A stretch of DNA of 64,000 nt, from NCBI GenBank assembly GCA_030651375.1, contig JAUSFM010000009.1:65345-129344 (forward strand), in the 5' to 3' direction. The number at the start of each line of letters is the position of its first letter. Position 1 is the stretch's first letter. The notes beneath the pieces are model-generated. The model was not told where the DNA came from. It made no database searches and saw only the letters and a program-made list of their open reading frames with translations. Positions 20,048 to 64,000 of the stretch are shown piece after piece. The translations under genes and the position numbers were made by a program. This DNA comes from Candidatus Woesearchaeota archaeon. Lineage in GTDB: Archaea > Nanobdellota > Nanobdellia > Woesearchaeales > UBA12501.

Positions 20048-20177
20048 GAAACGAAAAACCGTGCTGGTGGTTTATATAGGTTGCGGAAATTGATTATTTT
20101 ACTTCAACTATTTCCCTGTTTAGTTCACCCAATCTTTGATAGAAATCCATTTATAGGGGTATCACTTTTTGTTTTTT

Positions 20178-33026: not shown

Positions 33027-33059
33027 GCCTTTCACCGTTATTTTCTTCTTTTAAAAATA

Positions 33060-47195: not shown

Positions 47196-47247
47196 TCTTC
47201 TGCGCAGGAAGCAAACCTTTTTAAATCTTTGTTTATAAGCCAATCCC

Positions 47248-49319: not shown

Positions 49320-52300
49320 TTAAAATTCAAATTTTTTATCCTGCTCTCCTTGTGCTGCTTCTCCTTCTTCAAACAAATATTTTTTCTTGTGCGGCAATTT
49401 CTGTTTCAGTTTTTCAACAAGTGTCTTGCTTTTCTGGCGGACGAAACTCAATGCGTCACTCGCAATGCCCAAACTGCCGATGCTCGTTTTCAGGCGCGCT
49501 GCAGAGTCGCTGTCAAGATGCGTTATTTTCCGGTAGCTGAAACTCCCCAGCCCAAGTGCACCGAGCGTGAGAAGGGTGAGAATCGAGCCCAGTCCAAACA
49601 TGCTAAACTCTCCGTCCTCTTTGACAAATCCAAGCGCTTTTCCAACGCCGGCGATGCGGCCGGTTAGCAGATCGTTGGATACCGTTTCTGTTTGTTCTGC
49701 TGTTGCAGCGCCGGTCACACCATCTCCTCCTGCTGTTTCTGATTCAGTTGCTGACTCGAACGATGATTCTGATTCTTGCGCAGCAGCTTCACCATCTGAT
49801 GATGTTTCACTCGTCGTGCCGATACTGCTTATCGATGCAGGTGCTGATGCGGGCAGGGTGCTTGCCGGTCTGCTCTGCTGCTGACTCTGTGTTGGCCCGC
49901 CACCGCCTCCTCCGCCGCCACCGGCTGCTCCTCCTCCTGTGCTTCCTGTTCCAGTATTTCCCGTGCTACTTGTATTCGGGGCGCTCAGTGAGATATTAAG
50001 TATGCCTTCTTCTGAAAGCTTGGTGAAGAGCACACCATCGCAGGTTGCATTGTACCGATACAGCCCTTCTGCGGTAAAACTCTGCACACGTTCATAGCGA
50101 TTGCTTGCTGCATTGAACGCTGCAATACTCGTGTCGTTGTTGACCGTTAAGAAACAAACCGCATCAGTAATCACCTCATTTGACGTCGAATTGCGGTAAT
50201 TCAGCTGCATCGTCACCGTCTGATTTGGCTGTTTTGGCGAATCACTGCTCAACACAACCCCCGCATTTGGCTCAACGGTGAAGCTGCTGAAATGGTTGGC
50301 GGTAAAGCTGACAGCGTTGTCCGTGCATACCACATTAATGCAGGCCGTGCTGCTATTTTCGCTGCATACGAATCCTGCTGCGCGCACTTTGTCAGCGGCC
50401 GTGTACACTGCTTCTGCGGCGACAATCTTTGTTGGGCACGTCACATTTTTTATGGTCACGCGAGCTGTGTTGTTATATTCACTGCCAAGCATCGTTGTAT
50501 TAACGCTGACCAGCCGATCGCTCAATCGTATCGCATTGTCAAAATCCCTGCCGCGTGCGTCCTTGCCGCCGGTAAAATTGACCGAGCCGCGCTCTTTTTT
50601 CTCGATGAAAAGGTCTGAACCATTTGCGAGATTTGGCGCTGCGTTGAAGTTCGTAGTGTTGCCGTCAAATGTTGCAACGGAAGGAAGTTGGCTCAACACC
50701 ATAGTAAGCGCGGTGCTCATTGTTTGGCTGAGATTGATTATTTTGTTTTGTTTTGTATACGTTCCCGCCTCAACCGTGACGGTGTGCGGCGTCAGAATAT
50801 CATTCACTGCTCCGTATACTCCTTCGACGAGCAGGAAGTTCATTGCACTTACATTTTTTGTGGTGATGGTTGAGCCATTCTGAAGAGTTATAGTCATATT
50901 CGTCAGGAGCGGCTGGCTGTTGTTATTCGTTGTGTTCACGGAAAGGTACCAGTCCAGTTCAACGCTTGTCGTGGTGTTTGCCTCAATTGTTTTCGACGTG
51001 GTTGTTGTGTTAATCAGCTGGTTTCGCCCGCCAAACCCTTTCATGCCCAGCGCGCCGTTTGTTGCAGAATCATTCACCTGTGCATTCGCCGCGCCATCAA
51101 ACAATATGCCCGTCGAGAAATTCGTGAGCGTGCACGATTTCACGCGCGCGTTGTTGGTGGTCATCGCCATCCCTGTTCCCACATTCGTATTCTTGCTGAC
51201 GAATGAAAATCCGTCGCAATCAAGTGTGATGTTGTCTGCTGAAAGCGTCATACAGGTTCCATTTCCTCCATACTCAAGCGACGCATTCATCAGAATGTTT
51301 CGGTTTGGTTTGGTATACTGTTTGCACGCCGCCACAAACGGATATATCGTTATCGTATCCTGCGCAGCAGCAGGAGTTGTATCCGACGCACTGCATGACC
51401 CGTTCCAGTCAATGCTTTTTTCTGTCGTGAAAAACGTGGTGTACTCGTAATATGATGATGTTGCATTGTATACCATAGCATGAGACACATTTTCGATGGT
51501 AATCGTGCAGTTTGCGTTTCCCACAATAGGCGCGCCGGTCGTATTCGTATAATTTGCAAAGAAGGTTATGTCGTCATCAACCGTGCTGTTTTTGCTGCCG
51601 CGCTGCGCATCATTGTCGTCAAAAATAGTCAGCACCGCGCTTGCGCTTGTGGTGAAGTTTCCATAAGCGTCAAAGTTTGTGACGTTAAAGGTGGTATTGT
51701 CTCCTGATGAGCTCATAACCATACAACTGGCACATTTTTTTCCATCGTCAAAAATAAATCCATTAAGCACTGGCGGATTTTTCATCGTGACAACAGCCGT
51801 TGCATTAAGGCGCGGCTCGCGTGAGATGTTGATAATAATGTTTCCCGGCTTGATACTGATTGACTCGTTGAGATTCATTTTCACAAAATTAACCGCGCCG
51901 GGATAGGCAACCAGCCCATCGCCATTTCCAATTTGCGCGCCGGCCAGCATTTCAAGATTTTCCAGCGTTTGCGCAGCGAAGTTTGTTGTCGCTGAATTGT
52001 TGAACTGGCTGTATTTGATCGGCTCTTGAATTGTTTGAACCAGCTCAAGCGCGTCAATGCGCAGGAACGTGAGGCCGGTGCCTGCATCAGCTATTTTTTT
52101 CCCCGTGTTTCTCAACAGCACACGCAGTTCATCAACACGCAGAATACGATTCTGGAACTGCTGTGAGAATTGGTTTGCGAGCGCAACAAGTCCGGCAACA
52201 TGCGGTGTTGCCATGCTGGTGCCTGACAACGTGGTGTACCGATTGTTGTTGCATACTTGTCCGCTTCCGCCGGCAGGGCAGTTTTGCTGTGCCGTTGAAT

Positions 52301-53390
52301 TTATCGATGAGCCCGGCGCGAGAACATCAAGAAGGATATTTCGATTGGTGAATGCTGAAATTGCGTCTGCTTTTGTCGTCGAGCCAACCGCCGTGACATT
52401 GGAAAGGCATGCCGGAAGCGCAATGCCACCCGTGTTGGCGCTGTTGCCTGACGCCGCGAGCATCATAATGCCCTGTCCATACGCCGTGTTCGCCGCGTCA
52501 GTGAACGCAAGAGTTTGTCCATTTGCATCACAGCTTGCGGCGTCGCTGAAGATGCCCGTGCCCAAGCTCATGGTGATGACATCAATGCTGTAATTGTTTT
52601 TGTTTGCAATACAAAAATCAATCCCTTTGAGAATATTCGAGAGATCCGTGCTGCTGTCCTTGCCAAATACTTTGACCGCGACAATGCCTGCGTTTTTTGC
52701 CACACCCACCAGATTATTTCCTCCTGCTGTGGCCGGAGCGTTTGCCGCCACAATGCCGGCAACATGGGTGCCATGGCCGTTTTCATCGGTTGCGTTGCCA
52801 AACAGTTCGGTCTGATTATTTGGGCAGCACGCCGAGCCGTTGTTAGTACAATAACAGTATTGCGCAACAATATTGTTCTTCAGGTCAGGGTGAGTCGGGT
52901 CAATGCCCGTGTCAAGTACGCATACACCTCTCCCTGTCCCGGTGATGTTTGCCCCTCCCACCACTAATTGGTGCACCGTGGTTGCTTTGATAAGCGGTAC
53001 GCTTTGCTCAAGCAGCAGGTGCATTTTCGTGTCAGGAATGATTGCCGCAACGTTAGGATTGTTCTGCAATTCAGCCAGCGTGTCCTTTGGCACGGTCGCA
53101 GCAATCATATTAAGCATTTCAAATGTTTCAATATTTTTTACGCCCGGGGCATCGAGCGAGTCGCTGATGACGCTGTCTTGTTTTTCACGAACACCCTCTT
53201 GTACTGTTGCGAGTGACATTCCTGCTGTGGAAGCAGTCTCTTTGAGTACAATAATCACATCATTGGTTTGCTGGGGGACGAGGTTCACCGCAGTGTCTTC
53301 AGCGGTGCTTCCAGCGGTAAAAAGAGCCAGACTAATAAGTACAGTAAAAAGAACTACCATCCTCTTTTTTTGAATGTCCATCACCTTCAT
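49320..53390 (-). CDS. Giant secreted subtilisin-like serine protease (S8) with Ser/Thr/Gly-rich stalk and C-terminal TM anchor
   Basis: Catalytic triad motifs DTGIDPTHPDL, HGTHVAG and GTSMATPHVAG. More than 40 NxS/T sequons in the ~700-aa extension, poly-Gly (GGGAAGGGGGGGGG), and a TM helix FGLGSILTLLTLGALGLG near the C-terminus. Confidence 0.85.
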   Translation of the reverse strand: MKVMDIQKKRMVVLFTVLISLALFTAGSTAEDTAVNLVPQQTNDVIIVLKETASTAGMSLATVQEGVREKQDSVISDSLDAPGVKNIETFEMLNMIAATVPKDTLAELQNNPNVAAIIPDTKMHLLLEQSVPLIKATTVHQLVVGGANITGTGRGVCVLDTGIDPTHPDLKNNIVAQYCYCTNNGSACCPNNQTELFGNATDENGHGTHVAGIVAANAPATAGGNNLVGVAKNAGIVAVKVFGKDSSTDLSNILKGIDFCIANKNNYSIDVITMSLGTGIFSDAASCDANGQTLAFTDAANTAYGQGIMMLAASGNSANTGGIALPACLSNVTAVGSTTKADAISAFTNRNILLDVLAPGSSINSTAQQNCPAGGSGQVCNNNRYTTLSGTSMATPHVAGLVALANQFSQQFQNRILRVDELRVLLRNTGKKIADAGTGLTFLRIDALELVQTIQEPIKYSQFNNSATTNFAAQTLENLEMLAGAQIGNGDGLVAYPGAVNFVKMNLNESISIKPGNIIINISREPRLNATAVVTMKNPPVLNGFIFDDGKKCASCMVMSSSGDNTTFNVTNFDAYGNFTTSASAVLTIFDDNDAQRGSKNSTVDDDITFFANYTNTTGAPIVGNANCTITIENVSHAMVYNATSSYYEYTTFFTTEKSIDWNGSCSASDTTPAAAQDTITIYPFVAACKQYTKPNRNILMNASLEYGGNGTCMTLSADNITLDCDGFSFVSKNTNVGTGMAMTTNNARVKSCTLTNFSTGILFDGAANAQVNDSATNGALGMKGFGGRNQLINTTTTSKTIEANTTTSVELDWYLSVNTTNNNSQPLLTNMTITLQNGSTITTKNVSAMNFLLVEGVYGAVNDILTPHTVTVEAGTYTKQNKIINLSQTMSTALTMVLSQLPSVATFDGNTTNFNAAPNLANGSDLFIEKKERGSVNFTGGKDARGRDFDNAIRLSDRLVSVNTTMLGSEYNNTARVTIKNVTCPTKIVAAEAVYTAADKVRAAGFVCSENSSTACINVVCTDNAVSFTANHFSSFTVEPNAGVVLSSDSPKQPNQTVTMQLNYRNSTSNEVITDAVCFLTVNNDTSIAAFNAASNRYERVQSFTAEGLYRYNATCDGVLFTKLSEEGILNISLSAPNTSSTGNTGTGSTGGGAAGGGGGGGGGPTQSQQQSRPASTLPASAPASISSIGTTSETSSDGEAAAQESESSFESATESETAGGDGVTGAATAEQTETVSNDLLTGRIAGVGKALGFVKEDGEFSMFGLGSILTLLTLGALGLGSFSYRKITHLDSDSAARLKTSIGSLGIASDALSFVRQKSKTLVEKLKQKLPHKKKYLFEEGEAAQGEQDKKFEF

Positions 53391-53426
53391 TTACTGCCTC
53401 GTTCGGCAGGGAATATGTATCCTTTT

Positions 53427-53462
53427 TCTTTTATAAATCTTGTGAAGATAGGTTTATATATG
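53427..53462. promoter_or_regulatory. Divergent promoter region with TATA-like boxes (cttttataaatc; ggtttatatatgg)
   Basis: The second box lies about 22 bp upstream of the + strand gene at 53483. Confidence 0.35.
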
Positions 53463-53482
53463 GCCACCTGTCCCGCTCCACT

Positions 53483-53980
53483 ATGCGACCTGAACTTGAA
53501 ACAAAAACCCTCGTTAACCGGTTAAAAGATACTGACATTGGCAAGGCAGGAGTATCCCGCCCTGAATGTCAACGCATGATAGCAGATGTTGTGCGTGAAT
53601 ACGTTGAAACAGCGTATGCAGTGACTAGTACAGTCATTGCACGGGCGCTTGAGGAATTACGCAACAATGCTGATTACCGCGCTGAAGGAAGAACCCCATT
53701 CTGGACACGCTCCGCCACTGACTGGGACCTCTCTCGTTTTACCAGTGCACAACGAAATCCCTATCTCACCGTAGTGCCGCATAAAAAAATTGGCGATGCT
53801 GCACGCTATTTTATTCAGAAAAAAAATCCAGGTATCTCAGTTGATATCAGCTGGTCAAAAGACCATGCCAGCGCTTTTGCGCAACAGCTCATTTATTATC
53901 GGGATGATACTGCGTTAGAACTATACATCAACAAACATTTCAGGCCAAAACGCATAATCTACCAATTTCGCGAGAGTTAG
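53483..53980 (+). CDS. Hypothetical protein
   Basis: 165-aa ORF, no motif. Confidence 0.35.
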   Translation: MRPELETKTLVNRLKDTDIGKAGVSRPECQRMIADVVREYVETAYAVTSTVIARALEELRNNADYRAEGRTPFWTRSATDWDLSRFTSAQRNPYLTVVPHKKIGDAARYFIQKKNPGISVDISWSKDHASAFAQQLIYYRDDTALELYINKHFRPKRIIYQFRES

Positions 53981-53990
53981 TTAGCTGTCG

Positions 53991-55025
53991 TTACATTCTC
54001 GGCTGCTGCTGGCTCATGCAGTGAATCGTGCCAAAGCCGAACACGACGTGGTAGCAGTTGATGCCGACTACTTTTCGCTGCGGGAATTGTTCCTGAATAA
54101 TCCTCAGCGCTTTCTCATCATTCTTGTGCCCAAAAATAGGCACGAGCACAACCGTATTGCCGATGTAGAAATTCGCATAGCTTGCCGGCACCCTTCCTTT
54201 GTCATCGCCCACCACACCGGGCATGGGCAGTTTGATGACCGTAAGTTTTTTCCCATCCTGATCCGTTTCTTTGCATAGAATGTCATAATTTTCTTTCAGC
54301 ATCGGATAATTTTCATCGTTGGCATCATCTTCATACGCGCATAGCACTGTTGTGGGGTTTACAAACCGCGCAAGGTCATCAACGTGGCCATCGGTGTCAT
54401 CACCCACAATGCCTTCATTGAGCCAGATAATTTTTTTGACGCCCAAAAAATCCTTCAGATACTGCTCAATCTGCTGTTTTGAAAGCTGTGGATTCCTATT
54501 TTTGTTAAGCAGGCACTGTGCCGAGGTCAGCAGCGTTCCCTTACCGTTGACATCGATTGAGCCGCCTTCGAGCACAATGCCGGGCGCGAACCGCTCAATC
54601 TTCATTGTTTCGTTAATCCATTCGGGAATGTGAGAATCTTTGAGCAGTTCTTCGTACTTGTTGCCCCACGCGTTGAAAATCCAGTGCGTCATGGCGAGCT
54701 TTTTTTCTTTTTTATTCACCACAAAGATTGGGCCGTAGTCACGAAACCAGACATCGGCATACTCATGGACATGGAGCGTTATTTTTGAGAAATTGCATTT
54801 TTTCTTTTCAAGCGCCGCCATCACTTTTTTCTTCATCGCTTCATTTTTGACGAGTAAATTCACCTGTTCACTGGAATGAACTGCTGCAATAATCTCTGCC
54901 ATGGCCTTTTCTGCCTCCGGCATATTCGGAAACGTAAGTGGGTCATGCGGCCACGAGAGCCAGATAGCATCGTGCGGTTCCCATTCTGCGGGCATCTGAT
55001 AACCGAGCTGAGAAGGCGTTTTCAT
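53991..55025 (-). CDS. aguA: Agmatine deiminase
   Basis: MKTPSQLGYQMPAEWEPHDAIWLSWPHD N-terminus and C-terminal catalytic Cys region (GTIHCMSQQQP) of the agmatine/porphyranase-type deiminase family. Confidence 0.85.
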   Translation of the reverse strand: MKTPSQLGYQMPAEWEPHDAIWLSWPHDPLTFPNMPEAEKAMAEIIAAVHSSEQVNLLVKNEAMKKKVMAALEKKKCNFSKITLHVHEYADVWFRDYGPIFVVNKKEKKLAMTHWIFNAWGNKYEELLKDSHIPEWINETMKIERFAPGIVLEGGSIDVNGKGTLLTSAQCLLNKNRNPQLSKQQIEQYLKDFLGVKKIIWLNEGIVGDDTDGHVDDLARFVNPTTVLCAYEDDANDENYPMLKENYDILCKETDQDGKKLTVIKLPMPGVVGDDKGRVPASYANFYIGNTVVLVPIFGHKNDEKALRIIQEQFPQRKVVGINCYHVVFGFGTIHCMSQQQPRM

Positions 55026-55029
55026 TGTC

Positions 55030-55875
55030 TCACTTTTTACACAAACGTCCATACGTTTCCGGCCGGCGGTTGCGCATGAATCCCCATGCGTCGCGGATGT
55101 CCTTGTTTTTGCTGGTATCAACATCAACAATCAGAATTTCTTCCTTGTCGCCGGCGCGCTGAATCACATTGCCAAATGCGTCGCATACAAATGAGCCGCC
55201 CCAGAAATGCAGTTCATTTTCTTCGCCAACACGGTTGACCGCAGCGACAATGACACTGTTTGCAATGGCGTGGCTGCGCTGGATGGTTTCCCACGCATCG
55301 TGCCACTCACCCTCATGTGCTTCATGGTTTTTGATAGTGCCGATTGCCGTGGGGTAGAAAATAATTTCAGCGCCGTTGAGCGCGCATACCCGTGCCGCTT
55401 CAGGAAACCACTGGTCGTAACATATCAGGACAGAAAAGGTGGCATACTTTGTTTTGTAAACAATATACTCGTCGCTACTTTCCTTGAAATAGTCCTTTTC
55501 ATAAAACAGCGGGTCGTGGGGGATGTGGTGCTTGCGGTAGGTGTCGAGCTGTTTTCCGTCGGCGTCAAACACCAGCGCAGAATTGTACTCTGTTTTTCCT
55601 TTTTTTTCATAGAATGGCACAACAAGCACCACTTTTAATTCATCTGCAAGCGCAGAAAACCGTTCACTGAACTGGTTTGGAATGGATTCAGCCAGCGCCG
55701 AAAAATCTTTTTTTTGTTCGCGCGGAAAATAGCGCGTCGCGAACAGTTCCTGCAGGCAGATGATTTTGGCACCTTTCTTCGCTGCAGCCCTAATTTTTTC
55801 AATAGTTTTCTGTATGTTTTCGGGCTTGCTTTCACCGGCAGCACTTTGAATGAGGCCAATGGTTACGTTGGTCAT
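55030..55875 (-). CDS. aguB: N-carbamoylputrescine amidase (carbon-nitrogen hydrolase family)
   Basis: Nitrilase-superfamily E-K-C triad context (ICLQELF; ...LICYDQWFPE). Adjacent to aguA. Confidence 0.85.
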   Translation of the reverse strand: MTNVTIGLIQSAAGESKPENIQKTIEKIRAAAKKGAKIICLQELFATRYFPREQKKDFSALAESIPNQFSERFSALADELKVVLVVPFYEKKGKTEYNSALVFDADGKQLDTYRKHHIPHDPLFYEKDYFKESSDEYIVYKTKYATFSVLICYDQWFPEAARVCALNGAEIIFYPTAIGTIKNHEAHEGEWHDAWETIQRSHAIANSVIVAAVNRVGEENELHFWGGSFVCDAFGNVIQRAGDKEEILIVDVDTSKNKDIRDAWGFMRNRRPETYGRLCKK

Positions 55876-55927
55876 GGTTCATCTAATAAAAAAAGAAGAA
55901 GTATTTAAAGGTAGCTGCTCGTCACTG

Positions 55928-56599
55928 CTACTCAACCATCCCTTCACAGGTAAATTTGAGTTCAGTGTACAAACCAACCGTGTTTCCAGCGAGCTTGTTG
56001 ACCAGTTCTTTTTGCCAGTACGTCTTTCCCTTAAGGAGTTTTTCCTTGACCGTGCATGTTGCCTTCTGGCCAGGCTTGAGCACTTCAGTGCCACATTCTT
56101 TTTGTGGTTCAGTTACCCGGTTGCTGTTCAGTTGGATTCTCATAGCATCTTTTTCAGTGACCTCTTCAACGCCGATGCGGGTGAGCTGATATTCTTTTTT
56201 GCCCTTGTTTTCAATCGTAAACGTTACCATTGACTCTCCGTCGGGGAATAGTTTTCCGCAGACCACATTTGAGAACCATGATGTTTTCTCCTCTTTCTTT
56301 TGAACGTCAGCAGCGCTGCCGATAACTGTTTTTTCAGAAACAGTTACGCTGTTTGGTTGGGAGTATTCAGGAGCGAGTTGTGGTTTTTCTTGCTGTTCTT
56401 GTTTGTTTTCACCTGCTATTACTTCTGGCTGTTCAGCTGCTTGCGCTGCCGGTTCTTGAGCATCTGCCATTGCAGGCTCTTGATCTTCTGGGCTTTCCAG
56501 TTGTGCAGTCACTTCAGGAGCGGTTTGTTGTTGGGTGCGGGCGCAGCCGCTCAAGGCAATAACTCCAACAAGAATCAGGACAAAGAGCATTTGTTTCAT
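55928..56599 (-). CDS. Secreted lipoprotein with acidic Q/E/A/P-rich linker (paralog A)
   Basis: Lipobox LSGC; low-complexity acidic linker. C-terminal domain related to the adjacent paralog (EEKTSWF...). Confidence 0.5.
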   Translation of the reverse strand: MKQMLFVLILVGVIALSGCARTQQQTAPEVTAQLESPEDQEPAMADAQEPAAQAAEQPEVIAGENKQEQQEKPQLAPEYSQPNSVTVSEKTVIGSAADVQKKEEKTSWFSNVVCGKLFPDGESMVTFTIENKGKKEYQLTRIGVEEVTEKDAMRIQLNSNRVTEPQKECGTEVLKPGQKATCTVKEKLLKGKTYWQKELVNKLAGNTVGLYTELKFTCEGMVE

Positions 56600-56612
56600 A
56601 GGTACACCTTTT

Positions 56613-57377
56613 TTATGTTCGGCATTTAAAATCAGTTTGCGTTGAGACAAATCTCGAACGTGCTTCAACGCTGTTAATCATTTCTTGCTTTTCCTTGATA
56701 AATTTGTGTGTTTCAGGATAGCGTAGGCTTGCTGGGCAGCGGTTACATTCAAGCGTTTGGCCAGCCTTGACAATCATCGTGCCACAGCAGGCGTTAATCT
56801 GCTCATTCGTGAGCCGGTTGCCATTTATTGCTAATTTTATGGGCACATTGGTTGCTTCGTCGGCTCCAATTCGGGAGTATGCATTGGCCCACGTGAGATT
56901 GTATTCACGATTGTCATTATTGGTGAAACGGAAGGAAAGCGCATCTTCATGTTTCGTGCCGGTGCCAAACGTTCCCTGTTTTTCACCAGTGTACCGTTCA
57001 CATTGCAAGCCGGCAAACCAGCTTTTTTCCTCGGTTTTTCGGGTGTCGCGCGTTTCGCCGAGTACTGTTTCCTGTTTTGTTACTTCAACATTTGTTTCAA
57101 GCTGGGCAAGTGCAGATGCTGGTTTTGGGTCAAGCACAGAATTGCCCGTGAGGCCGGTGCCTGCTGCAGAATCAGCATTTTCTGGTGCAGTTTCAGATTC
57201 TGGCACTGCGGCTGGTGCTGCTTCTGCAGTTTCTTCAGGTGCAGTTGCATCTGGTTGTGATGGCTCTTGCTGTTCTGGCTTTATTTCCTGTTTTGAACAT
57301 CCTGCAAGACTCAACATCAATATACTTATAGCAAAAAGGACAGAGAATATGTGCATTGTTCTCATAGCGATTGCCAC
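56613..57377 (-). CDS. Secreted lipoprotein with acidic linker (paralog B)
   Basis: Lipobox LAGCS, acidic E/A/P linker, C-terminal domain with EEKSWFAGLQCE similar to paralog A. Confidence 0.5.
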   Translation of the reverse strand: MAIAMRTMHIFSVLFAISILMLSLAGCSKQEIKPEQQEPSQPDATAPEETAEAAPAAVPESETAPENADSAAGTGLTGNSVLDPKPASALAQLETNVEVTKQETVLGETRDTRKTEEKSWFAGLQCERYTGEKQGTFGTGTKHEDALSFRFTNNDNREYNLTWANAYSRIGADEATNVPIKLAINGNRLTNEQINACCGTMIVKAGQTLECNRCPASLRYPETHKFIKEKQEMINSVEARSRFVSTQTDFKCRT

Positions 57378-57486
57378 CTCACATGGGTATACATCAATTG
57401 ATGCGAAATAGTATATAAATATTGTGCATTTTGAAACAGCTTATTTGAGGGGAATACTCTCTGATTTTATCTGATTTCTCTCGCTC

Positions 57487-57990
57487 TCATCTGAAGAAAT
57501 ACGACCAAATAACGAGAATAGCCAGTGCAATCGTGCTAATCTTCCAGAGAATGTCACTCTTTATCTCGACAAACTCATCTTCTGCCGGTACTGTTGCCGT
57601 CGATGTGCTGTTTTTTGCTTCTTTTTGTTTCTTTTCTTCCGGTTCGTTGCGTTCTTGTATCTCTACTATTTTTGAAATCCGCGCTGGCTTTGGTGCAGGC
57701 TTTACTGCCGCTGCTTTTATTGTTTTTTTTGCCGGCGCTGCGCGCGTTTTTGCTTTTTGCTCTTTTTCTTTTTTCTGGCTTTGCTGCTTTTGTTCAGTTT
57801 TTTGCTTTTGTTTTTTGGGCGCCGGCGCAGGTTCGTGTACTGATGCTCTTGATTCGCCTGATTCTGATTCTCCCGCTACCTTTCTGACGCTTTCTGCAAT
57901 AGAATACATTGGGTCACTGGTGCCGGTGCCAGCGCTGGATGCGTATTCGCTTTGGTAGATACCCGTCTTATCAGCCATATTCATAAGCAT
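57487..57990 (-). CDS. Tail-anchored K/A/Q-rich protein
   Basis: 167 aa with a highly basic low-complexity middle and a single C-terminal TM helix. Confidence 0.4.
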   Translation of the reverse strand: MLMNMADKTGIYQSEYASSAGTGTSDPMYSIAESVRKVAGESESGESRASVHEPAPAPKKQKQKTEQKQQSQKKEKEQKAKTRAAPAKKTIKAAAVKPAPKPARISKIVEIQERNEPEEKKQKEAKNSTSTATVPAEDEFVEIKSDILWKISTIALAILVIWSYFFR

Positions 57991-58112
57991 TGGCCTGTTT
58001 TTTTATAAAGTTTGTTGTCCTCGAATATCCGTATCTATCTCCCCCTCTATTATTCCAAACAGAATAAACTGGGCAATAACCTTTTTAAAAACCTGCTTCA
58101 GTGAATCGAATC

Positions 58113-59327
58113 ATGGCACGAAAATACCTTTTCACCAGCGAAAGTGTCAGCGAAGGACACCCGGACAAACTCTGCGACCAGATTTCAGACGCGATTCTCG
58201 ACGCCATCCTCGCCAAGGATCCCAACGGCCGCGTCGCGGTTGAGTGCCTCGTCAAGACCGGCTTTGTCGTTGTCGCCGGCGAAGTGACCACGACCGCGTA
58301 TGTTGATATTCAAAGCATTGTGCGCAGCGTCATCTGCGAAGCAGGCTACGACCGCCATGATTTGGGATTTGAAGGCCAGACGTGCGGTGTTCTTGTCGCG
58401 CTTTCAGAACAATCACCTGACATCGCGCAGGGCGTTGATGAGCGTTCTGCAACGGGAAAAGAAACTGCCGAACAAGGCGCCGGCGACCAAGGATTAATGT
58501 TTGGCTATGCCACTAATGAAACCCCTGAATTCATGCCGCTGCCCATTAGCACCGCGCACAAGCTTCTCTTAAAACTGCGCGACCTTCGCAAAACACATGT
58601 GCTTCCGTACCTTCGGCCTGACGCAAAAAGCCAAGTCACGGTTGAGTATGACGGTGGAAAACCCGTGCGTATTCACACCGTTGTTTTGTCCGCTCACCAT
58701 TCGCCTGATGTTACGCACGCGCAGATAAAAAAAGACCTCATCGAACACGTCATCAAGCCGGTGTGCGGAAACTACCTCGACGATTCAACCATCTATCACG
58801 TTAATCCAACCGGAAAATTTGTGGTCGGCGGGCCGGTTGCCGACGCAGGCCTTACCGGCAGAAAAATAATTGTTGACACCTATGGCGGCCACGGTAGCCA
58901 CGGCGGCGGCGCATTTTCCGGAAAGGACCCCAGTAAAGTTGACCGGTCCGGGGCATACGCCGCGCGCTACATTGCAAAAAACATTGTCGCCGCGGGACTC
59001 GCCGACAAATGCGAAGTCCAGCTTGCGTACGCCATCGGCGTTGCCGCTCCTGTTTCCATTTTGGTCAACTGCTTTGGCACCAACAGGGTTTCGGAAGAGA
59101 AACTTTCTGAACTGGTGAGAACCCACTTTCCCATCAAGCCCGCTGACATTATTTCTCATTTGAAACTCCGCAGGCCCATTTTCAGAAAAACAGCAAGCTA
59201 CGGCCACTTTGGCAGGGACGACCCTGATTTCACGTGGGAAAAACTGGACAAGGTTGACGCGCTGAAACAGGACGCGGGGCCGCTGCATGCTCCTGAACAT
59301 ACAGGGAAAGATGTGGCGCTGGATTGA
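58113..59327 (+). CDS. metK: S-adenosylmethionine synthetase, bacterial/eukaryal MetK type
   Basis: [43 protein letters not shown] and [23 protein letters not shown] are hallmark MetK motifs. Confidence 0.9.
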
Positions 59328-59337
59328 ATTGGTTGAT

Positions 59338-60345
59338 ATGGCTGCTCTTCGTAATTCTAACAAGAATCTTAACTCAAACAAAGCTACGGGAAGGAAAATA
59401 GTCTGGTTCTTGGGGGCAGGAGCTTCTCGAGGTGCTGGTGCCGCACTGCGGGTCGGCGGGTCGGGAGGTACAATTAAAATTCCAATTCAAGCCGACTTTT
59501 GGGACGTTGTTCTAAGGTATGGATCTAAAAAGGATGCTGACAAAATACAATCTTTTTTATTTAGATATTTTGCAGGTTATGATAGGACACCTGCGCGTAG
59601 TAATCGAAAAGAACGAAGAGAAGTATTGAAAAATATTGATGTCGAAGAAGTTTTTACTTTTTTGAGTGAGAGAATCAAAACCAAGCAAATTCCTGACTCT
59701 TTAAAAACTTATTTTACGGAAATTCAGTCAAAACTAATACGCACGGTGACAAAAACCCTTCGTAAATTCGAACCAAATGCCCAAACTAAGAAAACCTATG
59801 CCACCTTCTCTAAAAATCTTCTGCGAACAAGAGACGCTGTTGTATCTTTTAATTACGATACTATCTTCGAATATTCTTTGCCAAAAAACAAACCCTTCTT
59901 TTATCAGGATGTTTCGAAAAAAACTAAATTTTATGCTGTTTTCAAGCCGCATGGTTCTATAAACTGGAAGATGGGGGAAAACAAAAAACTTGAAGTTGAC
60001 GATTATGTTGACGAACCCGAACTAATCCCTCCAACACATCTAAAATTTATCGGAGAACAAATTGACCCAATAAAACTGCTTTGGAAAAAAATGGAAATTC
60101 AAATGCAAGCAGCCAAAACTTTTGTTTTTATAGGTTATTCATTTCCTGATGCTGATTTCTACTTTTCTTCTGTTATGCGATCTGTTTTAACAAAAACTAA
60201 AAGAAATGTTAAAATAATCCTTGTTGACCCCGATGCTCAGCGATTGTCAGAAAAGTTTGGTAAACGTTTCTCAATAACTCAAAACAGGATTCTAAAATAT
60301 TTTGATTTATCACAACTTCTTCAAATTAAGCGTAAGACATTATAG
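59338..60345 (+). CDS. SIR2_2-family (defence-type SIR2-like) protein
   Basis: N-terminal IVWFLGAGASRGAG, then FNYDT and HGSINW motifs of the SIR2_2 fold. AT-rich gene immediately after metK. Confidence 0.65.
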   Translation: MAALRNSNKNLNSNKATGRKIVWFLGAGASRGAGAALRVGGSGGTIKIPIQADFWDVVLRYGSKKDADKIQSFLFRYFAGYDRTPARSNRKERREVLKNIDVEEVFTFLSERIKTKQIPDSLKTYFTEIQSKLIRTVTKTLRKFEPNAQTKKTYATFSKNLLRTRDAVVSFNYDTIFEYSLPKNKPFFYQDVSKKTKFYAVFKPHGSINWKMGENKKLEVDDYVDEPELIPPTHLKFIGEQIDPIKLLWKKMEIQMQAAKTFVFIGYSFPDADFYFSSVMRSVLTKTKRNVKIILVDPDAQRLSEKFGKRFSITQNRILKYFDLSQLLQIKRKTL

Positions 60346-60510
60346 TTCGGTCATTTCAGATAAGTCCGCTTTTGAATTTATTTTTCTGCCTTTTAATCCC
60401 GCCAAAACTATCTTTACCAATACGTTCCCTTCCTCTAACTGTATTCGTTTAGGTCTCATTTGATCTATCTCACCGAAAGCTTTATATATACATATACATT
60501 AATACTCTCT

Positions 60511-60723
60511 ATGTCGAAACTTATCAGCGTCTCGGATGATGTGTACACAACCCTTAAAGAGATGAAGGGTGAGGAAAGCTATTCTGTTGCCATAAGAAAA
60601 CTCTTTACCCCTAAGTCGAATAAAGAGAAGATACTCAGTTTTTACGGGAAAGGTGGGATTGACAAAGAAATGATAAAAGAGGTTCAAAAATCATGGAAAC
60701 AGTGGTCAGAAAAATATGTTTAG
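60511..60723 (+). CDS. Putative VapB-like antitoxin
   Basis: Small ORF (MSKLISVSDDVYTTLKEMKG...) overlapping the PIN gene start. Confidence 0.4.
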   Translation: MSKLISVSDDVYTTLKEMKGEESYSVAIRKLFTPKSNKEKILSFYGKGGIDKEMIKEVQKSWKQWSEKYV

Positions 60724-61076
60724 ATTCTGATGTTGTTATCTCTTTATTGAACAAAGATGAACCTACCTATGTTTCTCTTCAAAAACTTAATGCAACCTTT
60801 TGCATCACCGCAATAACCTCATTTGAAATATGGTGTGGAAAGAACAAACCAGAGACCGTCTTTGAAATCCTCGAGTCCTTTCACACGCTCGACTTTGATA
60901 CTCATGCAGGCCGCCTTGCGGGCGACATTTTTCGAAAACTCAAAGAACAAGGACGGCTTATCGAAATGCGGGATATTTTCATTGGCGCAATATGCATCAA
61001 AAATAATATGGAACTGTTCACCCTCAACAAAAAACATTTTGAGCGGCTAAAAGAATTTGGCTTAATTCTAGTATAA
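60693..61076 (+). CDS. vapC: PIN-domain toxin (VapC-like)
   Basis: 127 aa. N-terminal LDSDVVI acidic motif and PIN fold pattern. Confidence 0.65.
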   Translation: METVVRKICLDSDVVISLLNKDEPTYVSLQKLNATFCITAITSFEIWCGKNKPETVFEILESFHTLDFDTHAGRLAGDIFRKLKEQGRLIEMRDIFIGAICIKNNMELFTLNKKHFERLKEFGLILV

Positions 61077-61081
61077 GGCTA

Positions 61082-62359
61082 TTATCTCATTCCCATCACT
61101 CGCTCTGCTTGAGCAATCGCATAGTTTCTAAGATACCGTTCTGCTTGTTTCGATGCATTCGCAGGCAAGTTTCTTCCCCGCATGATATGCTCGTCAAGAG
61201 CTGCATAATCATGGCTGCGTACATAGAATTCAACTGCTTTTCTCACGGCACGGAGCCGGAGATTGTCAGGCAATACGTCTGCGCGCGCTATCCATAAAAA
61301 ATCAGATGCGTGGGGCTTCTGCGGCCACGTTTGTGAAAGCAGGTAGCTGATGCCGTATGCTTTCATTTCTGGGGAGAGATCATCGTGGTCCAAAATAGTA
61401 AGCCGTATATTGCTATATGAATCCCGATCTTTTTGAAACCGAATAAAATCACTCAATGCTTTTTTTCGCAGCGTTTCTGGAAGCGCAGTGTCTGCAATAA
61501 ACGCTACGACCTGATCTCTATACCTCAAATGTTCATTCTGTCTAATCCATGTTGATGCAACACTGGTGGCTTTTTCACGCGCTTTTTTTCGTACTTCTTT
61601 TGGAAGGAATCTTTCATTTGCCATACATTTGAGTGCAAGATACTCATTCTCTCGGGTATGTTCTTCTATTGCTTTTTCTGCAGCGGGGCCAAGAGCGGCT
61701 CGTATCTGTATGCGATGGGGAGCAGGGATTCTTTTGTTTGTTCTACTCTCTTCATACAAATGTTCATACGAGCCCTGTTCAACACAGTTGGTTATATACG
61801 CTGATAGCGCAGCATCCATCCCTGCTTCTGCTGCATGCCGTACTTCATCAGGAACTTTACGGTTGTGGGAAAGTGCCAGGACTTCAATATAATTTCCTTT
61901 TTCCACATCGAACTCAACAAGATTTTTTCCTGCAGCAACACGAGTTTCATCAGGAGCATATTTGTTTTGGACGAGATTGAGAAGACGATACTGTCCTCCG
62001 TCTCCTCCGCGCGCCACATACAATTCGATCAGCTTTTCCCCGGCGGCACGGCGAATGTCATCGGGAAGTGTTGTATCTAGTGCCAGAACTTCTAATTCAC
62101 CGGTATCTTTTTTTTGCAGTACTTTTCGCGCCGCAGCGGGAAGGTGTTTTTCTGCATCTTCTGGTATTCCTGCTGGAAGAGAATCTCTATTCTCCTCCAC
62201 AGTAAGAATGGAAAGAGCAGTGTACATTCCGCGTTGGACATAGGTTGATACTGCCAGTTTTCCTGCGGCAAGACGCTTTGCTTCATCCGGATGCCAGCGC
62301 ATGACGGCCAGCAGCGATTCCAGCGTATCGCGCGGTTCAAGATCAGGAGTTGGTCCCAT
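61082..62359 (-). CDS. Repeat-containing hypothetical protein (HEAT/PBS-lyase-like repeats)
   Basis: Recurrent ~30-aa units containing AAG(K/E)xL(V/I)E(F/L)YV..G.Y. Confidence 0.4.
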   Translation of the reverse strand: MGPTPDLEPRDTLESLLAVMRWHPDEAKRLAAGKLAVSTYVQRGMYTALSILTVEENRDSLPAGIPEDAEKHLPAAARKVLQKKDTGELEVLALDTTLPDDIRRAAGEKLIELYVARGGDGGQYRLLNLVQNKYAPDETRVAAGKNLVEFDVEKGNYIEVLALSHNRKVPDEVRHAAEAGMDAALSAYITNCVEQGSYEHLYEESRTNKRIPAPHRIQIRAALGPAAEKAIEEHTRENEYLALKCMANERFLPKEVRKKAREKATSVASTWIRQNEHLRYRDQVVAFIADTALPETLRKKALSDFIRFQKDRDSYSNIRLTILDHDDLSPEMKAYGISYLLSQTWPQKPHASDFLWIARADVLPDNLRLRAVRKAVEFYVRSHDYAALDEHIMRGRNLPANASKQAERYLRNYAIAQAERVMGMR

Positions 62360-62477
62360 ACAAAAGAACTAAGTATAGATGTTTATATAGTTTGTTGGGG
62401 TGGAGAATAAAACCCCCTGAACGTTTAAAAATCAACCACAACAATATTTATAAATATGCTCCCGTGCCACCGACGAT

Positions 62478-64000
62478 ATGACGTTTAGACACCGCACCAC
62501 GCCGGAACAGCGCCGGAGAAAGCTCAAGGAACTTCTTGCAGCAGGAAAACTCGTGCGCGTTATCGAGGCACACAACGGCTTGAGTGCGTTGGTAGCGACC
62601 GAAACAAAAGTGGAAGTTGGCGGAGAGTTAAAAGAATTCGACGCAGTCTGGGAAAGCAGCCTCACTGATTCCGCCTCAAAGGGCCAGCCGGACATTGAAG
62701 TCGTTAGCTATGATTCCCGCATCAACACCATCCAAGAAATTTCAAACGTCACCGACAAGCCGATTATTGTTGACGGTGACACCGGCGGCGATCCGAGCCA
62801 TTTTGAATATTTTGTCAAGCGGCTGGAGCACATCGGCGTCTCTGCGGTCATCATCGAAGACAAAGTGTTTCCGAAGCGTAACAGTTTGGATGCCGACGCG
62901 AAACAAGATCTTGAAGACCCGCATCTCTTTGCCACAAAAATCAAGCGCGGCAAGAGCATGCTGCTGACGGATGAATTTCTGATTTTTGCGCGCCTTGAAA
63001 GTTTGATTGCCGGCGCTAGTGTTGAAGATGCGCTGAAGCGCGCGCGCATCTACCTGCAGGCAGGCGTTGATGGCATCATGATTCATGACAAGGCAAAAGA
63101 CCCAGCGCAGGTGTTCCGGTTTGCTGAAGAATACAAAAAACTTTGCAGCGAGCTCGGCGTCAGCAAGCCCTTGGTCAGCGTGCCCACCACCTACAACACC
63201 GTGACTGAAGAAGAGTTGGCTGCACGCGGATTCAACATTGTCATCCACGCAAATCATTTATTGCGCTCTTCGTACAAGGCCATGCAGGCAGTGGCAAAAA
63301 CAATCCTCACCAACGGCCGCTCCTTTGAGGCGGACGCGCAGTGCGCTGCCGTCAAAGACATCTTTGAGATTGTCGGCTTTTCCGACGTCAAAAAGAAAGA
63401 TGAACAATACGCACCAAAATACACGGGCTTCCGCGCCATCATTCCGGCAGCAGGCGCCAGCAGTGTTTTTTCTCATCCAAAGGCATTGCTGGATATTAAC
63501 GGCAAAACCGTGCTTGAGCGCCAGCGGGACACGCTCCAGCGCGCCGGCATCCGCGAAGTGTCGGTCATCCGCGGCTTCAAAAAAGAACTGTTCACCGTGC
63601 CAAAAATAAAATACCACGACAACGACCAGTACCAGACTACCCACATTCTTGATTCGTTGTTCTGCGCCAAGGATGACATGGGCAATGGCTTTGTTCTTGC
63701 CTATGCGGACGTATTGTTCCACGAGTCACTTATCAAAAACCTGCTCGATGCGCATGGTGATATCGTCCTTGTCGTCGATAATACGTATCGCCACCACACG
63801 CATGAAGTGGACAAGGAACTCGACCTCGTTATTGCAACGAACGAGCCCTCGCTGCGCCACCTCAACCCCTCCCTGCACCGCCACGTTTCCCGCATCGGCA
63901 AAAAAATTCAGAAAGAAAACGCAACGCACGAATTTGTCGGGCTTGCAAAATTTACGCCTGCAGGAGCCGACGCATTGTTAAAACTGTATGATGAATGCCG
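62478..64000 (+). CDS. pepM: Phosphoenolpyruvate mutase fused to a C-terminal nucleotidyltransferase domain (3' partial; runs off window)
   Basis: Hand-translated open frame missing from the ORF track because no stop falls in the window. PepM-diagnostic EDKVFPKRNS (EDK-X5-NS) plus DGDTGGD metal site. From about residue 310 the motif AIIPAAGASSVF...GKTVLERQRDTLQRAG indicates a LicC/PntC-like sugar-nucleotidyl/cytidylyltransferase fold. Confidence 0.75.
   Translation, partial: MTFRHRTTPEQRRRKLKELLAAGKLVRVIEAHNGLSALVATETKVEVGGELKEFDAVWESSLTDSASKGQPDIEVVSYDSRINTIQEISNVTDKPIIVDGDTGGDPSHFEYFVKRLEHIGVSAVIIEDKVFPKRNSLDADAKQDLEDPHLFATKIKRGKSMLLTDEFLIFARLESLIAGASVEDALKRARIYLQAGVDGIMIHDKAKDPAQVFRFAEEYKKLCSELGVSKPLVSVPTTYNTVTEEELAARGFNIVIHANHLLRSSYKAMQAVAKTILTNGRSFEADAQCAAVKDIFEIVGFSDVKKKDEQYAPKYTGFRAIIPAAGASSVFSHPKALLDINGKTVLERQRDTLQRAGIREVSVIRGFKKELFTVPKIKYHDNDQYQTTHILDSLFCAKDDMGNGFVLAYADVLFHESLIKNLLDAHGDIVLVVDNTYRHHTHEVDKELDLVIATNEPSLRHLNPSLHRHVSRIGKKIQKENATHEFVGLAKFTPAGADALLKLYDEC

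Follow-up and report, generated by a model that had tools for sequence, protein, structure and literature searches.

A PEP mutase-nucleotidyltransferase fusion gene and a phosphonopyruvate decarboxylase gene in a putative minimal phosphonate locus of a Woesearchaeota archaeon

Background

Phosphoenolpyruvate (PEP) mutases (Ppm or PepM) are told apart from the rest of the isocitrate-lyase (ICL) superfamily by an EDK-X5-NS motif, and their single commonest architecture, a fusion of Ppm with a PF12804 domain, accounts for 33% of Ppm (Rice 2019, Nat Commun, PMC6697681). PntC enzymes make CMP-2-aminoethylphosphonate (CMP-AEP; PMC6697681). The assayed PF12804-type enzymes in the literature that we found are PntCs not fused to Ppm, i.e. 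Ari1348 and Tde1415, the latter fused to an AEP transaminase (AEPT). Our literature search turned up no later biochemical study of a PF12804 domain fused to Ppm. In fosfomycin biosynthesis, Fom1 is a cytidylyltransferase-PepM fusion acting on hydroxyethylphosphonate, according to the account cited in PMC6697681.

For Ppm, Li & Horsman (2022, PMC8942020) reported a presence in 1.6% of the archaeal genomes of RefSeq. A Ppm-cytidylyltransferase fusion was noted in Borg elements, which are archaeal (bioRxiv 10.1101/2024.11.05.622173). No paper on phosphonates of DPANN archaea or Woesearchaeota was found in our literature search.

Results

A two-domain pepM gene at the end of the window

In the window (the whole 64,000-nt stretch of DNA analysed), an ATG at 62478 starts a forward-strand frame open for 507 codons up to the window end (62478..64000). 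The frame was missing from a program-made list of ORFs because it runs off that end. A public contig from a Logan assembly (L003), 100% identical to window positions 51082-64000 (12,919 nt), extended the window by 8.3 kb to a sequence of 72,359 nt. On this contig the stop codon of the gene ends at window-equivalent position 64178, and 507 of its 566 codons lie inside the window. The full-length product (P0128) was GenBank MDO8642528.1 (566 aa), which carries the label "phosphoenolpyruvate mutase" and whose residues 1-507 are identical to the window translation.

A single-sequence scan of GTDB genomes gave no close relative, and an alignment-based rescan succeeded. The fusion gene had a dN/dS of 0.07-0.09 against relatives, and each domain of the protein one of 0.04-0.09 against relatives ~90% and ~80% identical. 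GC content of pepM and ppd (0.49-0.52) was not distinctive against the window mean (0.47), and base composition gave no signal of horizontal transfer.

The PEP mutase domain

The N-terminal part of the protein (62523..63407, forward strand, ~aa 16-310) matched PF13714 PEP_mutase (aa 16-277, E 2.6e-51) and the NCBIfam equivalog TIGR02320 "phosphoenolpyruvate mutase" (aa 16-299, 343.8 bits against a cut-off of 319.55). NCBIfam models of sister families gave the fusion protein 152.8 bits (phosphonopyruvate hydrolase, PPH; cut-off 374.4), 103.9 bits (methylisocitrate lyase, PrpB; cut-off 354.4) and 42.8 bits (CPEP mutase; cut-off 420). By these scores, identity as a phosphonopyruvate hydrolase or a methylisocitrate lyase was rejected. 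The PepM-specific gating-loop motif EDK-X5-NS was present as EDKVFPKRNS (62856..62885, forward strand, aa 127-136), in alignment with E114-S123 of Mytilus PepM. A sequence-only reading of this DNA had called the frame a PepM by that motif, and the TIGR02320 score bears the call out.

That reading had also proposed an alignment of catalytic residues to PepM, and in this alignment all of them were retained. The residues that we take to be catalytic or metal-binding in Mytilus PepM (W44, S46, L48, D58, D85, D87, E114, K120, N122, S123, R159 and H190) corresponded to identical residues here (W58, S60, L62, D72, D99, D101, E127, K133, N135, S136, R172 and H203, respectively). Most catalytic residues of the domain were invariant in 54 homologues; N135 was conserved in at least 90% of them, and L62 was absent from the conserved columns listed.

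The closest solved relatives by sequence were the PepM structures 5unc (E 1e-45) and 1m1b (E 1e-44). As a full-length structure, the AlphaFold model of P0002, a relative 92% identical, was used (mean pLDDT 86.6). Its top Foldseek matches in the PDB were PepM 1pym, 1s2t and 5unc (E ~1e-22 to 1e-21, TMt 0.77-0.78). All of the 50 matches listed for it were PepM/ICL-superfamily structures, and the C-terminal domain was therefore modelled alone. Judged by its sequence, the N-terminal domain is a bona fide PEP mutase with all catalytic residues and a predicted activity.

The fused nucleotidyltransferase domain

The C-terminal part (63435..64000 in the window, forward strand; aa 320-566, the last 59 residues beyond the window end) matched PF12804 NTP_transf_3 (aa 320-440, E 4e-12, 47 bits against a cut-off of 27). 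Within the terms of profile searching, the size of the E-values excludes chance as the source of the Pfam matches to the protein. A profile built from 20 fused domains matched LicC (1jyk, 1e-17) and the PntC-AEPT Tde1415 (6pd1, 3.4e-8). The domain modelled alone (pLDDT 89.7, pTM 0.88) was matched by Foldseek to 6pd1 (TMq 0.73-0.75) and 1jyk (TMq 0.75, TMt 0.83), and UDP-glucose pyrophosphorylases were also among its matches. As modelled, this is a LicC/PntC-fold nucleotidyltransferase (NTase) domain with a complete NTase fold. The in-frame fusion to a LicC/PntC-like domain, as first read from the letters, agrees with both profile matches and with the TM of ~0.75. Aligned from end to end, the domain shared 30% identity with a stand-alone NTase of two relatives (L001 and L002), and its own dN/dS was 0.085-0.093.

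The signature loop IIPAAGASSVFSHPK (63438..63482, forward strand, aa 321-335) contains no Arg and falls 4-5 residues short of the canonical loop, (L/A)AG-x-G-x-R-L-x-P-L-T-x-x-x-PK. The signature Arg is kept by LicC, Tde-PntC and 7/7 stand-alone NTases from related clusters. It is not conserved in the fused family, where positions 1-5 of the loop contained no K or R in 34/100 domains, and the loop was 7-8 residues long in 81/100. The PK lysine is present (K335). D411, E551 and D557 (the latter two beyond the window end) were invariant in 54 homologues; they sit in the motifs expected for them, SDILF and GWxEIHxxxD, and are candidate counterparts, by sequence alignment, of the acidic metal ligands of LicC (D107 and E216/D218). 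As far as sequence can tell, the missing canonical G-x-G-x-R loop is a caveat for the whole fused family. With this loop missing, and with the assayed PntCs of the literature found all being non-Ppm-fused, CMP-AEP is an inference.

Genes and promoter-like elements around pepM

Past the window end, ~500 nt after pepM, L003 contains a full-length ORF for phosphonopyruvate decarboxylase (ppd, window-equivalent 64680-65810), the product of which scored 446.6 bits on TIGR03297 against a cut-off of 312.5. The dN/dS of Ppd was 0.09-0.10 against relatives ~90% and ~80% identical, and both the pepM fusion gene and ppd are under strong purifying selection (0.04-0.10). PepM and Ppd are identified by these results, and both are intact. 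A hicAB pair lies between pepM and ppd on the opposite strand, and a TPR gene between ppd and a conserved 106-aa ORF. No family matches were obtained for the TPR protein and the small downstream ORFs (106, 190, 242 and 99 aa).

A promoter-like element (62436..62456, forward strand) precedes pepM. It consists of a 20-nt motif CCACAACAATATTTATAAAT (62436-62455) with a TATA-like box TTTATAAATA at 62447-62456, centred ~26 nt before the ATG. Both pepM and ppd have their own TATA-like box ~26-28 nt ahead of the ATG, and such spacing suggests a leaderless archaeal transcript. The motif was found once in the 64-kb window with 3 mismatches allowed (expected 0.01). It is conserved before pepM in L001 and L002, with an identical copy before phnD in L002, and probably functions as a promoter. 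DNA homology to L001 and L002 starts at 62435. Immediately upstream of pepM these relatives have phnD-phnC-phnE and a gene for a 232-aa NTase, whereas the window has there a gene for an unrelated 425-aa repeat protein.

Phosphonate genes in the extended sequence

PepM and Ppd were the only phosphonate-related genes detected in 72 kb by tblastn and scanning of ~55 ORFs. The query for AEP transaminase (L007) was verified by 428 bits on TIGR03301, and tblastn with it found none in the 72,359 nt. No aminotransferase was found in Pfam/NCBIfam scans of ~55 ORFs from the 72-kb extended sequence, and no tblastn matches in 72 kb were obtained for an Fe-alcohol dehydrogenase (Fe-ADH), a stand-alone NTase, PhnD or two other aminotransferases. 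PhnY or another branch-point enzyme was not found within 72 kb, and the Pfam/NCBIfam ORF scans gave no glycan, lipid or other transferase genes at the locus or in 72 kb. An aldehyde dehydrogenase gene at 702-2066 was rejected as a pathway member; it is succinate-semialdehyde dehydrogenase-like, lies 60 kb away and scored 271 bits against the phosphonoacetaldehyde dehydrogenase cut-off of 636.

The prediction that ppd or a transaminase would follow pepM was right for ppd, with its score above the TIGR03297 cut-off, and no AEP transaminase was found within 72 kb. Phosphonate-decorated glycans or lipids had been predicted as well, and the locus gave this no backing in the form of glycan or lipid transferase genes. 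The proposal of CMP-AEP was not supported, with no AEP transaminase in 72 kb, the nearest archaeal relatives mostly having an Fe-ADH of the hydroxyethylphosphonate (HEP) route, and the Arg of the signature loop missing.

Archaeal origin and distribution of the fusion

The contig carrying pepM also encodes Dph2 (9500-10501), NMD3 (46191-47360), an archaeal-type PEPC (PF14010, 4198-5655) and HTH_10/DUF7343 regulators. In GenBank, all contig proteins looked up were named "Candidatus Woesearchaeota archaeon" (a DPANN MAG); the locus tags begin with Q7R76_, and the contig is 195 kb long. The attribution of the DNA to an archaeon was confirmed by these names and by the linked Dph2, NMD3 and PEPC genes. 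MetK and two sigma-70-like ORFs, bacterial-type, are also in the window.

The nearest homologues of the gene outside its own lineage were mixed bacteria and archaea (52-59% identity). GTDB yielded 427 hits, and in the archaeal HEP-type clade the nearest was L009 (70% identity). Among the best 80 GTDB species representatives with the same ~570-aa fusion, 38 were archaeal, Nanoarchaeota included. Thirty-eight archaeal genomes and many bacterial ones had the same PepM-NTase and Ppd core, usually accompanied by either an AEP transaminase or Fe-ADH, by a further NTase and by glycosyl- or phosphotransferases. Fe-ADH (HEP route) took the place of AEP transaminase in most of the nearest archaeal relatives, and most related clusters had a fused and a stand-alone NTase together. 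The fusion gene is real and intact. Since this fusion is the commonest known form of the enzyme and is found in archaea widely, and since GenBank already labels the gene, it is an ordinary member of a known family; on the same grounds, the claim that it was noteworthy for an archaeon does not hold.

Discussion

We think it quite likely that pepM opens a minimal module for phosphonate biosynthesis in this archaeon of the Woesearchaeota (DPANN). The PEP mutase domain would move the phosphoryl group of phosphoenolpyruvate from O to C in a Mg2+-dependent reaction, forming phosphonopyruvate. This reaction is thermodynamically unfavourable and would be pulled forward by TPP-dependent Ppd, yielding phosphonoacetaldehyde. 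An enzyme encoded away from the locus may then convert phosphonoacetaldehyde, either to 2-aminoethylphosphonate (by a transaminase) or to 2-hydroxyethylphosphonate or phosphonoacetate (by a dehydrogenase). The fused LicC/PntC-fold domain would most likely join the phosphonate and CTP into a CMP-phosphonate, which could be used for decorating a glycan, protein or lipid at the cell surface. We infer here what becomes of phosphonoacetaldehyde, what the fused domain does and to which substrate, and which molecule accepts the phosphonate in the end.

A rather unlikely alternative is that the fused NTase-like domain is not a phosphonate cytidylyltransferase but a paralogue that has diverged towards a different substrate, or towards binding or regulation. 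The true PntC would be the stand-alone NTase of the relatives, which is missing here, and the cell may either leave a small phosphonate free or depend on an NTase encoded elsewhere. The fused domain lacks the G-x-G-x-R loop kept by LicC, Tde-PntC and 7/7 stand-alone NTases, the presence of fused and stand-alone NTases in most related clusters implies non-redundant roles, and the assayed PntCs in the literature found are all non-Ppm-fused. Across the fused family, the residue aligned to E104 of Tde-PntC and D105 of LicC (amine contact) also appears, tentatively, to vary and to be non-acidic. Against this, purifying selection acts on the fused domain (dN/dS 0.085-0.093) as strongly as on PepM, and the domain retains the PK lysine together with D411, E551 and D557, which are acidic and invariant, and folds in the domain model as a complete NTase; moreover, an active cytidylyltransferase fused to Ppm has a precedent in Fom1, as cited, with a domain of another Pfam family.

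The remaining alternatives concern the gene as a whole. A decaying locus that has taken in toxin-antitoxin (TA) genes, has lost genes present in its relatives (for a transporter, a second NTase and tailoring) and no longer gives a product seems to us very improbable. It would fit the 425-aa repeat protein in place of phnD-phnC-phnE and the 232-aa NTase of L001 and L002, and the separation of pepM from ppd by hicAB and of ppd from the 106-aa ORF by the TPR gene; yet both ORFs are full length and above the equivalog cut-offs, all catalytic residues are kept, dN/dS is 0.04-0.10 and the promoter-like elements are retained. That the protein instead belongs elsewhere in the isocitrate-lyase/PEP-mutase superfamily, for instance as a phosphonopyruvate hydrolase, a methylisocitrate lyase or a CPEP mutase, and is catabolic or unrelated to phosphonates, is hardly credible. 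These sister families share the fold and match the protein significantly yet more weakly, far below their own cut-offs, while PepM passes its cut-off and EDKX5NS is present; the adjacent Ppd, an irreversible biosynthetic step, argues against a catabolic role. Bacterial contamination or mis-binning, favoured by bacterial as well as archaeal homologues at 52-59% and by MetK and the two sigma-70-like ORFs, is just as remote. Linkage to Dph2, NMD3, archaeal-type PEPC and HTH_10/DUF7343 on one contig is physical and not a matter of binning, an independent Logan assembly repeats 12,919 nt exactly, and an archaeal TATA-box-like promoter at leaderless spacing speaks against a bacterial origin.

Read as biosynthetic, the module adds Woesearchaeota (DPANN) to the archaeal lineages with phosphonate (C-P bond) biosynthesis, and some DPANN cells may bear phosphonate surface decorations for host attachment or phosphorus economy. 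The added knowledge is small, since GenBank already had the gene annotated, the architecture is the textbook one for most of the family, and archaeal genomes with it number in the dozens. It is improbable, in our estimate, that a genome-reduced and probably host-dependent DPANN archaeon makes a C-P compound via a two-gene module whose fused domain is not a PntC-type cytidylyltransferase. If it did, the "nucleotidyl activation" reading of about one third of PEP mutases would need revising, and the fused domain might work on a different substrate or with a different nucleotide, or it might control the unfavourable mutase reaction or draw it forward. For testing the role of the fused domain, this much reduced archaeal locus would be a clean place.

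Comparison with known systems

The PepM domain is 34% identical to Mytilus edulis PEP mutase (1PYM/1M1B) and has the same fold. Mytilus G47 is S61 here and the other listed active-site residues are conserved; the fusion protein adds a 9-residue insertion (aa 44-52) and the C-terminal domain. The fold of the latter is like those of LicC (1JYK) and the PntCs Ari1348 and Tde1415 (6PD1/6PD2; TM ~0.75), and by sequence alignment they have the PK lysine and, putatively, the acidic positions that bind metal in common. The fused domain differs in its loop (4-5 residues shorter, without the conserved Arg), in an identity of just 17-19%, and in a family-specific motif, DNSYxYHKHxxDKxLDLV, which LicC lacks and whose K446 and H440 are candidate substitutes for the missing Arg.

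In Fom1, as in the fusion here, PepM is covalently joined to a nucleotidyltransferase, which in the account cited activates a downstream phosphonate intermediate; by that account the transferase of Fom1 is N-terminal and of PF01467, whereas here it is C-terminal and of PF12804. Archaeal neighbourhoods with ppm and ppd, as here, are known from the methylphosphonate cluster of Nitrosopumilus maritimus, GCFs 869/685 (PMC8942020) and the Borg fusion (gene 308), which is of the kind seen here (bioRxiv 10.1101/2024.11.05.622173). Those other archaeal clusters hold tailoring genes (Fe-ADH and MpnS, glycan genes), whereas this locus has none within 72 kb.

The closest described systems are the Ppm-PF12804 fusions (PMC6697681). 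Here the local cluster is PepM-NTase and Ppd, without the usual transaminase, second NTase and transferases, and the host is a DPANN archaeon instead of a RefSeq bacterium. The gene has the same PF13714 and PF12804 pair, with PepM N-terminal and EDKX5NS; at ~570 aa and with Ppd as neighbour in both, the architecture is without differences.

Identification of a pepM-nucleotidyltransferase fusion gene

A forward-strand reading frame starting with ATG at 62478 remained open for 507 codons and continued past the window end (62478–64000); it was absent from the ORF list because the ORF tool drops frames touching a sequence end. In the window part of its product, Pfam detected PEP_mutase (aa 16–277, E 2.6e-51) and NTP_transf_3 (aa 320–440, E 4e-12). 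The NCBIfam equivalog for phosphoenolpyruvate mutase (TIGR02320) scored 343.8 bits against a cut-off of 319.55, and EDKVFPKRNS lay at aa 127–136 (62856–62885), confirming the sequence-only reading of an unlisted PepM (PEP mutase, Ppm) frame with the EDK-X5-NS motif. NCBIfam scores for phosphonopyruvate hydrolase, methylisocitrate lyase and carboxy-PEP mutase were all far under their own cut-offs. Mytilus PepM numbering was carried over by HMMER alignment, and all 12 residues that we take to form the Mytilus active site (W44, S46, L48, D58, D85, D87, E114, K120, N122, S123, R159 and H190) were identical in the window protein, so the catalytic-residue check proposed earlier also favoured PepM.

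The full-length protein was GenBank MDO8642528.1 (566 aa; residues 1–507 identical to the window translation), named "phosphoenolpyruvate mutase". By exact-sequence look-up, several window proteins were entries of one Candidatus Woesearchaeota MAG (tags Q7R76_, 195-kb contig), in which MDO8642527.1, encoded upstream of pepM, adjoined MDO8642528.1. The pepM contig also encoded Dph2, NMD3, an archaeal-type PEP carboxylase and HTH_10/DUF7343 regulators, and a TATA-like box (TTTATAAATA) lay ~26 nt upstream of the pepM ATG. This contig is archaeal by physical linkage as well as by binning.

Genes downstream of pepM

An independent Logan assembly contig (L003), identical to 51082–64000 of the window, extended the sequence to window-equivalent 72359. 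On it pepM (+) stopped at 64178 and was followed by a hicAB pair on the reverse strand (L003 7716–8179, window-equivalent 64181–64644) and then by ppd (64680–65810), encoding a 376-aa TPP enzyme that scored 446.6 bits on TIGR03297 (cut-off 312.5) and preceded by its own TATA-like box ~28 nt upstream. Beyond ppd were a reverse-strand TPR protein gene, four small ORFs matching no family in the searches of L003, tRNA-Glu(CUC) (69179–69253), and a reverse-strand gene (L003 399–2339, window-equivalent 70021–71961) for a 646-aa fusion of class 1 fructose-bisphosphatase with a DhnA/DeoC-type aldolase (479 bits on NF005321, cut-off 420). Within the 72 kb of extended sequence no AEP transaminase (AEPT), Fe-alcohol dehydrogenase (Fe-ADH), stand-alone nucleotidyltransferase (NTase) or phosphonate transporter was found, and none of the ~55 ORFs scanned was a plausible phosphonate transferase. 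The expectation of phosphonopyruvate decarboxylase (Ppd) or a transaminase downstream thus held by half, because only the Ppd was there.

Selection, promoter motif and possible cassette insertion

Two loci of close relatives, L001 (~90% protein identity by tblastn) and L002 (80%), were used as references for dN/dS, which was 0.04–0.08 for the PepM domain, 0.085–0.093 for the fused transferase domain and 0.09–0.10 for Ppd. Judged by these ratios, both genes are under strong purifying selection, so the locus is not a relic; the gene pair is real and functional, and probably makes a phosphonate derived from phosphonoacetaldehyde.

Upstream of pepM, L001 and L002 carried phnD (a TIGR03431 equivalog match), phnC, phnE and a gene for a 232-aa stand-alone NTase; 3′ of it they carried ppd, a homologue of the 106-aa member of the four small ORFs above and the same tRNA-Glu. 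Homology of the window to them began only at 62435, upstream of which the relatives' genes gave way to a low-GC patch and a repeat protein unrelated to them. A 20-nt motif including the TATA-like box (CCACAACAATATTTATAAAT; 62436–62455, unique in the window, 0.01 expected) recurred in the pepM promoter of each of the three genomes. It lay at 431–450 and about 3855–3875 in L002 and at about 3085–3105 in L001, and an identical copy was in the L002 promoter of the phosphonate transporter gene phnD. This suggests that genes for phosphonate synthesis and transport share a regulatory site in this lineage. In L001 (4834–5276), as in the window genome, the hicAB pair separated pepM from ppd; in L002 it was absent there. 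Just past hicAB in L001 came 64 nt (5315–5378) that repeat the 3′ end of pepM at 92% identity, as if a hicAB cassette had inserted with duplication.

Other features of the contig

The repeat protein (MDO8642527.1, 425 aa; 61082–62359, reverse strand), transcribed divergently from pepM and directly upstream, was made up of helical repeats with the pattern P(D/E)xxRxxAxxxLxxxYVxxGxY, had no match in the Pfam scan and was a singleton cluster in a 15-billion-protein collection. Directly upstream of this neighbourhood, the patch of about 59300–61076 (GC 0.34–0.36 versus a window mean of 0.47) contained a SIR2_2-like ORF (59287–60345), VapB (60460–60723) and VapC (60693–61076), and looks like an inserted defence/toxin-antitoxin islet.

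Two neighbouring reverse-strand ORFs (28474–29826, 450 aa; 29895–31193, 432 aa) had Sigma70_r2 and Sigma70_r4 domains and were called sigma-70 family factors of this Woesearchaeota MAG in GenBank; bacterial-type sigma factors are unexpected on an archaeal contig. Beside them were two giant ORFs with no Pfam match (31206–33035, 609 aa; 33060–37169, 1369 aa), and in their neighbourhood a ParA-like ATPase (27053–27862), a Bro-N protein (21629–22474) and an HNH protein (20169–21449). A mobile element or virus may have integrated here. An S-adenosylmethionine synthetase (58101–59327, forward strand) had N-terminal, central and C-terminal S-AdoMet_synt domains, which mark it as MetK of the type found in bacteria and eukaryotes and not as the MAT of archaea; it thus adds to the bacterial-like genes of this DPANN contig. 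A 1356-aa subtilase (49320–53390, reverse strand; Peptidase_S8 and Inhibitor_I9) bore a long C-terminal extension with a sub-threshold match to the Nup98-96 autopeptidase S59 (22.3 versus 28.4 bits).

Distribution of the fusion

Of 8,000 candidates scored in a protein search with the fusion, 5,570 were significant matches. Among the top 120, nearly every protein was 540–600 aa long and had the two Pfam domains together; those few that bore a name belonged to Marinimicrobia, Nitrospina, Aenigmarchaeota and Promethearchaeota. In a pattern scan that took a single genome for each GTDB species there were 427 relatives, and 38 of the best 80 were archaeal by record title (Promethearchaeota, Thermoplasmata, Bathyarchaeia, Nanoarchaeota/Nanoarchaeia, Halobacteria, Odinarchaeota and, at 70% identity, a "Methanosarcinales" MAG). 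Among Ppm as a whole, 33% are PF12804 fusions and ~60% carry a fused transferase of some kind (PMC6697681); Ppm occurs in 1.6% of RefSeq archaeal genomes (PMC8942020), and a PEP-mutase/cytidylyltransferase fusion was reported on archaeal Borg elements (bioRxiv 10.1101/2024.11.05.622173). The sequence-only reading that an archaeal example is noteworthy is thus not upheld: this fusion is an ordinary new case of an architecture that is well described, the gene already has its name in GenBank, and the locus is novel solely in its host lineage, Woesearchaeota.

In a tblastn census of flanks, the majority of archaeal fusion loci had Ppd, Fe-ADH and a second NTase (HEP type), and a minority Ppd, AEPT and NTase. 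A Nitrospinota set (L018, L023, L029, L032, L035, L036, L040 and ~30 more) encoded ~575-aa PepM-NTase fusions; unlike the archaeal and Marinimicrobia loci, these lacked Ppd, AEPT, Fe-ADH and a second NTase in the 8 kb to each side. The PEP mutase reaction is unfavourable. About 13% of Ppm neighbourhoods have no known branch-point enzyme, and most such families still encode Ppd (PMC8942020). A Candidatus Nanoarchaeia MAG (L020, 1119–13111) carried a DPANN cluster richer than the pepM-ppd pair of the window genome: PepM-NTase, Ppd, an aldehyde dehydrogenase (possibly of a phosphonoacetate route), a stand-alone NTase, two B12-binding radical-SAM enzymes, a flippase, a methyltransferase and a cytidylate kinase.

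The fused nucleotidyltransferase domain

With a profile built from 20 fused domains, the best solved relatives were LicC (1e-17) and the PntC-AEPT protein Tde1415 (3.4e-8). An AlphaFold model of the fused domain (aa 320–566; pLDDT 89.7, pTM 0.88) superposed on 6pd1 (Tde1415) and 1jyk (LicC) with TM ~0.75, and UDP-glucose pyrophosphorylases matched it equally well. Given the profile matches and the superposition, the earlier label of an in-frame LicC/PntC-like domain is fair at fold level.

In LicC, Tde-PntC and seven stand-alone NTases of related phosphonate clusters, the signature loop was (L/A)AG-x-G/A/S-x-R-L-x-P-L-T-x-x-x-P-K. In Ppm-fused domains it was IIPAAG-x4-F-x2-PK, 4–5 residues shorter and with the Arg not conserved; the loop of the window domain (AAGASSVFSHPK) has no Arg, in contrast to LicC and Tde-PntC. 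Rice et al. assayed Ari1348 and Tde1415, neither of them a Ppm-fused copy, and note that in the clusters they studied a separate transferase accompanies the fused one (PMC6697681). Since no later assay of a Ppm-fused PF12804 domain was found in the literature searched either, we infer CMP-AEP synthesis by the fused domain by analogy, and the Arg-less loop and the absent transaminase weaken it. Activity is favoured by the strong selection on the domain, by the invariant D411, E551 and D557, and by K335, which is present. On balance, the chance that the domain is the activating cytidylyltransferase seems even or slightly better. What the Arg-less transferase domain fused to Ppm does biochemically is the most interesting point left, and it concerns the whole family more than this window. 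Fom1, in which a transferase fused to Ppm is catalytically active (PMC6697681), offers a precedent, but its transferase belongs to a family other than that of the PF12804 domain described here.
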